Below, piece by piece: positions 27,216 to 27,869 of a stretch of 49,036 bases of DNA. The stretch is taken from positions 1 through 49,036 of IMG/VR virus record IMGVR_UViG_2531839476_000015; one strand, written 5' to 3'. The notes under the pieces were generated by a model. The model searched no databases. It had not been told where the DNA came from and saw only the letters and a program-made list of their open reading frames with translations. Numbering within the stretch: the first letter of the stretch is position 1; each line of letters begins with the position of its first letter. The position numbers and the translations under genes are program-made. The stretch comes from a virus. Lineage: Duplodnaviria; Heunggongvirae; Uroviricota; Caudoviricetes.

Positions 27216-27581
27216 ATGGCTGAGCTTCGTACACTCCAGAGCAGAATCAAAACACTGAATACCCGACGGGTGAATATTCTGAAGGGTGAACAGCGTCGTG
27301 TCAGTGGCAGTGCACGTGTTTCCCTCAAGCGTCATATCTGGCTCAGGGATGCCGGGCAGTGCTGTCTCTGTGGTCGTGTGGTTGACCTCTGTGACAGTGA
27401 ACTCGATCACCGAATTGCACTTCAGTTCGGTGGTGGTAATGAGGAGACGAATCTCTGGACGCTCTGTACCGAATGCCATCGACAAAAGTCTGCTCGTGAA
27501 GCGGCGGGTGGTATGCCGGACCCGACGCTGCCGGAGGTGTCCGGAGGTAGTGGCAGAGCGGACGACATCATCGGACTGTAA
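27216..27581 (+). CDS. HNH endonuclease (packaging-associated)
   Basis: CxxC ... DHRIALQFGG..NLWTLCTECHRQK motif; located immediately upstream of terminase genes as in HK97-like phages. Confidence 0.8.
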   Translation: MAELRTLQSRIKTLNTRRVNILKGEQRRVSGSARVSLKRHIWLRDAGQCCLCGRVVDLCDSELDHRIALQFGGGNEETNLWTLCTECHRQKSAREAAGGMPDPTLPEVSGGSGRADDIIGL

Positions 27582-27673
27582 CCCGAGCGGGGGGGTATCA
27601 TCCGGCGTAAAAAACGATCGCTCCGGACACCGCGCCCCCTCTCACGCAGAGAAAAAATTCCCGTTTCAGGGCA

Positions 27674-27793
27674 GTTAACATGTTAACTGGCTGTCCGGGC
27701 ATTTTTGCGGTTTTTATCTTTATTATTCAGTTTGTTGTGCGGAAAAAATGTTAACTGGCTTTTTCAGCAAATGTTAACCAGGCAGCAGTTAAC
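27674..27793 (+). repeat. Array of five GTTAAC-centred repeats (consensus aTGTTAACyGG, direct and inverted) upstream of terS; candidate TerS binding sites
   Basis: gttaacatgttaac palindrome at 27674-27687, further copies near 27750, 27773 and 27788 in both orientations. Confidence 0.5.
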
Positions 27794-27869
27794 ATTTGCG
27801 GCATGAGACGCCGGGAAAAATGGGCTGAACCATACCCGGCTGAGTGCGTTCTGGACCCGGGAGGAGGCT

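Follow-up and report, generated by a model that had tools for sequence, protein, structure and literature searches.

The pac site of phage SPP1 (pacL/pacR) contains multiple repeated boxes and intrinsically bent DNA, and several DNA-binding domains of the small terminase subunit (TerS) are engaged together on it. The manner in which SF6-type small terminases read DNA is still debated (PMC9611059, PMC11331095). In phage HK97, the most thoroughly studied of the HNH cos phages, packaging generates 10-nt 3' overhangs, TerS has its site downstream of the cut, and an A-tract is found near the cut (PMC11331095). It was reported that HK97 TerS has one 15-bp A-tract site at +15-29, which is bound through a substructure other than the helix-turn-helix (HTH) (PMC11331095). 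A C-rich cos of 10 nt occurs in the HNH-type phages SfI and SfV (PMC3636060), and Escherichia phage Lys8385Vzw has 3' cohesive ends with the cos sequence CGCCCCCCCT, as determined by PhageTerm (PMC7946995).

In this study, we analysed a stretch of viral DNA of 49,036 nucleotides (IMG/VR record IMGVR_UViG_2531839476_000015), here called the window, for which an original prediction had pointed to a cluster of GTTAAC-centred repeats between an HNH gene and the small terminase gene. The window has the same order HNH-cos-terS-terL as HK97 (gp74 HNH, gp1 TerS; PMC11331095). HK97 has a single site at +15-29, whereas the window has five candidate repeats at +34-153 (numbers with a plus sign are counted from the virion left end), an arrangement that differs from recognition of the gp1 type. 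A literature search, incomplete in its coverage, returned no paper describing these repeats or their binding; the element is of an ordinary kind and undescribed for this phage group.

Gene neighbourhood

The window is a long-tailed, Stx-converting lambdoid prophage whose kin are the Pankowvirus members 2851 and phi330, and BP-4795. Dozens of records of Stx1a, Stx2a and Stx2c phages match the segment 27216-28433 at 96-98.5% identity. The gene order runs from the Rz/Rz1 lysis genes through a TonB_C-like gene and a DUF3950 gene on the minus strand to the HNH endonuclease gene (27216-27581, plus strand; Pfam HNH, E = 7.5e-7), which is followed, after a 288-bp gap, by terS, terL and a protease-capsid fusion gene. 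Related Stx phages annotate the HNH product as HNH or DNase, and it is predicted to be the packaging accessory nuclease typical for HK97-type cos phages. The small terminase gene terS (27870-28433, plus strand; Pfam Terminase_2, E = 1.5e-8) starts with GTG and has the Shine-Dalgarno sequence GGAGGAGG at 27860-27867, while the large terminase gene terL (28430-30091, plus strand) encodes an ATPase and a nuclease (Pfam TerL_ATPase and TerL_nuclease).

The region from cos to terS (27620-27875) was found in 1,277 of 5,426 complete E. coli genomes, at up to seven places per genome, and the carriers of the packaging module include many Stx1, Stx2a and Stx2c converting prophages. Many E. coli strains harbor several prophages, each with identical predicted packaging specificity. 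Seven PPompW prophage records resemble the window only from about 27592 on, where the similarity sets in abruptly beside an annotated IS110-family element, ISEc20. This insertion lies in or beside a conserved run of G residues between the HNH gene and the cos cut site, and it may have split cos from HNH or disabled packaging.

The cos cut site and the virion ends

A search of phage records with the TerS protein led to the near-identical Lys8385Vzw (MT225100), in which terS starts at base 230 of the record. The record starts with CTCACGCAGAG (longer: CTCACGCAGAGAAAAAATTCCCGTTTCAGGGCAGTTAACATGTTAACTGG) and ends with GGACACCGCCCCCCCT, and the junction of end and start corresponds to 27640/27641 of the window. 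Because the record ends at this junction, the 10-nt cohesive-end sequence CGCGCCCCCT is placed at 27631-27640 and the virion left end (+1) at 27641; the termini were mapped in the relative by the PhageTerm software and transferred to the window by identity. The cos core (27625-27662, plus strand) thus reads GGACACC, then CGCGCCCCCT, then the left-end sequence CTCACGCAGAGAAAAAATTCCC (27641-27662). That the ends are 10-nt 3' cohesive ends comes from the PhageTerm report for Lys8385Vzw and is assigned to the window by sequence identity; the record of Burkholderia phage Bcep176 (L257) agrees, as it ends exactly 10 nt before CTCACGCGCAGAAAA (CTCACG), and so does the 10-nt C-rich cos of SfI and SfV. 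The end of the phi330 GenBank record was also considered as a physical end and was rejected as an arbitrary cut inside terS.

With the left end at 27641, the repeats therefore occupy +34 to +153, between the cut site and terS (+230). The expectation that this region marks the initiation of packaging was supported, since identity to the Lys8385Vzw termini places the cut site 27631-27640 beside the repeats. The cohesive-end site and the first repeat are 31 bp apart, the repeat being downstream, and the repeats are separate from the cut site.

The cos core was kept in 20 genome loci, 118 IMG/VR loci and a set of satellite elements. Two further elements accompany it. The G-run element GGGGGGGTATCATCC (27589-27603, plus strand), about 45 bp upstream of the cut, was found in all related Enterobacterales loci and in the satellites; it probably belongs to cos, where it could be a cosQ-like or a nuclease recognition element. 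Its length is polymorphic, from about 7 to 12 G among the IMG/VR variants of otherwise near-identical prophages (L026-L105), and this variation may be homopolymer slippage or assembly noise. On the left end, an A-tract at +12-17 is kept, satellites included. It is common to satellites with a different TerS N-terminal domain, and for this reason we assign it to the generic region around the cut site and not to the specificity element. We also observed an 11-nt perfect inverted repeat, GGTGTCCGGAG / CTCCGGACACC, at 27536-27546 and 27621-27631, one arm of which lies in the 3' end of the HNH gene while the other abuts the cut site; the upstream arm is absent from Salmonella phage FSL SP-016.

The repeat cluster

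Five copies of GTTAAC, starting at 27674, 27682, 27750, 27773 and 27788, lie within 27674-27793. The whole 49-kb window contains 20 copies against 8.1 expected, and the rate outside the cluster predicts 0.037 copies per 120 bp. The probability of at least five copies is about 5e-10 for one given 120-bp interval and about 3e-5 after correction for all positions, and in 300 first-order Markov simulations no 120-bp interval had more than 2 copies. The repeat unit extends beyond the GTTAAC core to about AAATGTTAACTG(G/C). Allowing at most one mismatch, ATGTTAACYGG occurs five times in the cluster and twice elsewhere in the window (3656 and 4165). The orientations of sites 1 to 5 are - + + + -. The original prediction of five repeats in 120 bp between HNH and terS, in both orientations, was therefore confirmed at all five positions and far beyond chance; its 14-bp palindrome is present as well, as part of a longer, 18-bp perfect palindrome.

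Relative to the left end, the five cores lie at +34-39, +42-47, +110-115, +133-138 and +148-153, and the terS start at +230. Sites 1 and 2 together form the 18-bp palindrome CAGTTAACATGTTAACTG (27672-27689), centred at +40/+41. The proximal site was found at +34-39 and +42-47 in every relative, irrespective of the motif class described below, and by analogy this palindrome can be regarded as the ancestral cos-proximal candidate TerS site, comparable to lambda R3. Site 3, AAATGTTAACTGGCT, lies on the plus strand at 27746-27760 (core 27750-27755), and relatives of a second motif class (class B) have ATGTTTATACC in the same alignment column. Site 4, AAATGTTAACCAG (27769-27781, plus strand; core 27773-27778), and site 5, AAATGTTAACTGC (27785-27797, minus strand; core 27788-27793), form a second inverted pair with 12-bp arms, GCAAATGTTAAC-N9-GTTAACATTTGC.

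The spacer between the proximal and the distal repeats (27690-27745) is rich in T tracts, with T runs starting at about +62, +71, +79 and +91, that is, about one helical turn apart, and its TTT-rich blocks are kept across motif classes. These tracts would probably bend the DNA intrinsically and return the distal sites toward the proximal site. The IHF consensus WATCAANNNNTTR (at most one mismatch) had no match within 27690-27750, between the proximal and distal repeats. A search for intrinsic terminators at the region found none, and an Rfam search (E <= 1) found no family. The single promoter-like match was weak, lay on the minus strand and was composed of two of the repeats.

Relatives with a single site

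A TerS alignment scan of genome contigs found related loci, for which a single TerS query had given no matches. Across Enterobacterales, the N-terminal ~56 residues of TerS show strong conservation. Phage FSL SP-016 and 19 genome loci, which represent at least 14 genera, have a common layout, in which the cos core GGACACCGCGCCCCCT/CTCACGCACAGAAAAAATTCCC is followed by a Shine-Dalgarno sequence and then by a single near-palindrome, TGTAAACATGTTAACA, at +34-47. In these loci terS starts at an ATG within the near-palindrome, at +40. The same two arrangements emerged from a cos-anchored scan of IMG/VR, with five GTTAAC copies and terS at about +230 in 74 loci and a single hybrid site with terS at +40 in 34 loci; the 34 single-site IMG/VR loci were classed by site counts, while the 19 genome loci and FSL SP-016 were read as sequence. 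One such near-palindrome at +34-47, overlapping the terS start, is the ancestral state across Enterobacterales.

Where the start overlaps the site, the first codons were ATG TTA ACA in every locus read (e.g., L003, L006-L021 and L023), and they are invariant despite varying synonymous positions downstream. On the other hand, where the start is uncoupled from the site (the class of the window, L022 and L121), the second codon, Leu2, is CTG or CTA. In the Proteus locus L022, GTTAAC is near its usual place, at +36-41, while the terS start has moved to +65. In L024 the half-sites are swapped (GTTAAC-GT-GTTTAC), and terS begins with GTG TTT ACG, giving the protein start MFT. As the start-overlapping loci always have ATG TTA ACA, the L022 site stays and the L024 halves swap, these comparisons point to a constraint at the DNA level, tied to the distance from the cut, rather than to translation. 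In the single-site relatives, it appears to be the DNA site that determines how the TerS coding sequence begins.

These single-site relatives (L006-L023) also have GTAAACAT at about -34 to -27, ~30 bp upstream of the cut (GTTAAC in L018). This element, on the right genome end, is possibly an extra TerS half-site for termination. At the equivalent place (27605-27613) the window reads GTAAAAAAC, with no match to GTAAACAT. The TerS of Bcep176 is a distant relative (37% identity), and its locus keeps CTCACGCGCAGAAAATTTTCCC and a TGTTAA-N5-TTAACA inverted repeat over the terS start; the cos design therefore reaches beyond Enterobacterales.

Motif class and the N-terminal domain of TerS

We found that the close relatives of the window among E. 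coli prophages fall into two classes. In class A (the window, P0014, P0021, P0009 and P0034), the HTH reads ...AGYS(A/E/G)KTARVKGSQ and the locus has five to six GTTAAC copies. In class B (P0024, P0006, P0033 and P0012), the HTH reads ...AGYS(E/A)KSARCKGSQ and the locus has GTTTAY/RTAAAC and no GTTAAC. The class-B loci L111, L253, L120 and L254, from four TerS variants, carry the sites TATAAACATGTTTATA, AAATGTTTATACC, AAATGTTTACAGG and GGTAAACATTT. In L111 the sites lie at +34-39, +42-47, +110-115, +134-139 and +149-154, in the same alignment columns as those of the window, and the full locus L253 has the same five sites; in the partial loci L120 and L254, only the distal GTTTAY-type sites are visible. 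The class-A loci L115 and L119 have diverged spacers, yet keep five to six GTTAAC copies. The motif search in related prophages that had been proposed as a check was therefore positive, with five GTTAAC copies in 74 IMG/VR loci and GTTTAY at matching positions in the class-B relatives. The exact class-B palindrome pattern, used in a scan of IMG/VR, matched only unrelated environmental contigs without cos context.

Of 63 distinct IMG/VR variants, 62 have unchanged GTTAAC cores, and this conservation among ~80 close IMG/VR relatives is non-discriminating, as the whole interval from cos to terS is nearly invariant. The more distant loci are informative in their protein identities. Class-A L115 has 79% identity to the window in HNH, 88% in TerL and 95% in the TerS N-domain, and class-B L111 has 79%, 97% and 86%, respectively. 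In this comparison, the motif class appears to track the TerS N-domain rather than HNH or TerL. The HNH protein was considered as a reader of the repeats and rejected, because its identity is independent of motif class (79% in both loci). The repeats are most simply taken to be read by the TerS N-domain, since the motif class follows this domain and is independent of the divergence of HNH and TerL.

The TerS protein consists of an N-terminal HTH domain (residues 1-56), a disordered linker and a C-terminal helical domain. AlphaFold2, run with a 24-sequence alignment, gave the N-domain a pLDDT of 91-95 over residues 1-50, with helices at 4-14, 19-25, 33-41 and 44-56. The best Foldseek matches in the PDB were the DNA-binding domain of SF6 G1P (4zc3; TM 0.84, rmsd 1.6 A, 30% identity) and 2cmp, followed by the full SF6-like TerS 3zqq and then the TerS of the cos phage PaP3, and phmmer gave weak matches to the same proteins. 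The N-domain therefore models as a DNA-binding domain of the SF6/SPP1 G1P type with a recognition helix at about 33-41. Few amino acids differ between the specificity classes, and any base contacts that these make are putative; residues 30/32, 35 and 38, which distinguish the classes, are located in the second HTH helix or where it begins, this being the predicted recognition helix. HK97 TerS was absent from the PDB sequence and fold searches with the TerS of the window.

Satellite elements

Three kinds of satellite-like elements carry a related TerS. The first (L106-L108 and L255, in E. coli, with terS at 1501 or 4001) contains a primase (D5_N/DUF5906) or AAA_25 gene, small ORFs, TerS and a capsid-like gene, the second (L109-L110) contains AlpA and TerS, and the third (L121-L122) contains TerS, a 321-aa gene and a TerL-nuclease gene. 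The C-domain of satellite TerS resembles that of the window in the two compared (P0053 and P0059, from the first two kinds), and the N-domain in all three kinds differs from that of the window (...KTARVKG[W/Y]QL). The satellites keep the G-run and cut site of the helper type, which are followed by private AAAAGTTACAC repeats of the GTTACAC type. These number from one to about five, and the first of them lies at +33-39 or +35-41. The cut site itself thus appears to be generic and common to satellites. The satellite pattern of cos and repeats, used in a scan of IMG/VR, gave no match.

Previous work on TerS-encoding E. coli PICIs reported that their mobilisation failed and that no helper was found (PMC6092414). 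Our comparison suggests that Stx-type (Pankowvirus-like) HNH cos phages may be the helpers of such elements. Taken together, we propose, tentatively and with slightly less than even confidence, a modular packaging code of Enterobacterales HNH cos phages, in which the cut site is generic, TerS residues 32, 35 and 38 choose among GTTAAC, GTTTAY and GTTACAC, and PICI-like satellites exploit the system by pairing the helper's cut site with private repeats. If true, this code would be the cos-phage counterpart of SaPI TerS hijacking, and Stx-type phages would be helpers for PICIs like those studied previously (PMC6092414).

Proposed function of the repeats and alternative explanations

We observed the position of the repeats against mapped termini, their statistics, their fixed architecture and the covariation of the motif with the TerS N-domain. 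On these grounds, it is quite probable that the five repeats are a cosB-like array of predicted sites for the N-terminal HTH domain of TerS. The original view of the repeats as TerS recognition sites is supported in this respect by the covariation and the fixed positions against the cut, with the refinement that the DNA would be cut upstream, outside the repeats. The HK97 system is a consideration against this reading, as HK97 TerS uses one A-tract site and the window also has the conserved A-tract at +12-17; by analogy, part of the TerS recognition could lie there.

Another possibility is that the repeats bind a different protein, such as a host nucleoid or transcription factor, HNH or a phage late regulator, and control transcription or translation of the terminase operon, not packaging specificity. 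The palindromes are operator-like, TTAACA resembles a -35 hexamer, two of the repeats make up the one weak minus-strand promoter-like match, and in relatives with a single site this site overlaps both the terS ribosome-binding site and the terS start codon. However, it is the TerS N-domain, not HNH or TerL, that the motif class follows, and in satellite L109 the only genes close to the private repeats are those for AlpA and TerS. Furthermore, the distance of the first site to the cut is fixed although the start codon moves (L022, L106 and L121), and the spacer lacks an IHF consensus and the region a terminator and an Rfam family. We therefore consider this explanation unlikely.

Still less likely is the explanation that the repeats are debris, left when the ancestral terS start ATGTTAACA was duplicated as ~180 bp entered between cos and terS, the copies being functionless. 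It would account for the motif being identical to the first terS codons of the single-site relatives (ATG TTA ACA, encoding MLT) and for the ~190 bp more that the Stx-phage lineage has between the palindrome and terS. Against it, all five copies differ in concert (GTTTAY) in the class-B phages, at homologous columns and with flanks that align, and the diverged class-A L115 and L119 have retained or gained cores as their spacers drifted. The copies also occur in both orientations, and their common flanks are unlike terS codons 4 onward. Finally, it is very improbable that the region encodes a small hydrophobic peptide and that the repeats are incidental, since the 24-codon ORF on the plus strand (27680-27754; MLTGCPGIFAVFIFIIQFVVRKKC), though it starts at the palindrome's ancestral terS ATG and stops inside site 3, has no good Shine-Dalgarno sequence, stops after 5 codons in L115, gives an unrelated 14-aa product in L111 and owes its hydrophobicity to T-rich DNA. 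This ORF was rejected as non-conserved and is probably not a gene.

Under the preferred reading of the repeats as TerS sites, TerS oligomers would dock late in infection on the proximal palindrome, whose centre lies 40 bp in from the future left end and which may be bound through two TerS DNA-binding domains. TerS would additionally contact the three distal sites (+110 to +153) across the T-tract-rich, probably bent spacer. The docked TerS would anchor TerL and the HNH protein on the cohesive-end site 27631-27640, 40 bp away, where a cut would leave 10-nt 3' overhangs, and packaging would then proceed rightward through terS. The physical binding, the bending or wrapping of the DNA and the separate roles of the proximal and distal sites are what we infer. 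The repeats would in this way give packaging its specificity, so that the phage's own genome is chosen over other DNA in which this generic cut site is also present.

Together, the cut site and the specificity repeats would define which DNA these phages can package, and they may explain how satellites and prophages living in one host compete for a single terminase or share it. A GTTAAC, GTTTAY or GTTACAC array at +34 from a conserved cos offers a simple sequence test for packaging cross-talk. The locus adds a clear natural specificity series and a link to satellites, and its TerS/site pairs are a natural set for studying DNA reading by SF6-type small terminases.

Comparison with known packaging systems

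The TerS N-terminal DNA-binding domain is homologous to that of SPP1/SF6 G1P (Foldseek 4zc3, 2cmp and 3zqq; Pfam Terminase_2). SPP1 and SF6 package by the headful (pac) mechanism and have no defined cohesive ends, whereas a precise cos cut is inferred for the window from Lys8385Vzw (PMC7946995). Headful packaging with imprecise, redundant ends does not fit the window, where HNH adjoins and a near-identical phage has defined 3' ends. The box sequences of SPP1/SF6 are also unrelated to the repeats of the window.

In its arrangement, the locus resembles lambda cosB (R3-I1-R2-R1), which like the window has mixed-orientation short repeats between the nicking site and terS on the left end, the first to be packaged (PMC9026076). 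The window agrees with the lambda type in repeat number, having five related copies in mixed orientation where at least three are expected. In both, the proximal site is at a fixed distance from the cut, +50-65 for lambda R3 and +34-47 in the window (PMC9026076), and the terS start is at +191 in lambda and +230 in the window. Phage N15, with a single-R3 cosB and terS at +89, parallels the single-site relatives described here, with terS at +40 (PMC9026076). In lambda, it is the N-terminal domain of TerS that carries the specificity, and the shared cosN is open to exploitation by satellites (PMC9026076); we propose likewise for the phages of this study.

On the other hand, lambda TerS (gpNu1) is a winged-helix protein, whereas TerS of the window belongs to Pfam Terminase_2 with an HTH of the SF6 type. 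Lambda has 12-nt 5' ends, and the window is inferred to have 10-nt 3' overhangs and an HNH partner. Between its proximal and distal repeats lambda has the IHF site I1, and the window has phased T-tracts instead. The proximal site of the window is a palindrome of two half-sites, unlike that of lambda, and the repeat sequences are unrelated. Because the protein family, the end chemistry and the repeat sequences differ, we conclude that the resemblance to lambda cosB is one of function and not of family membership.
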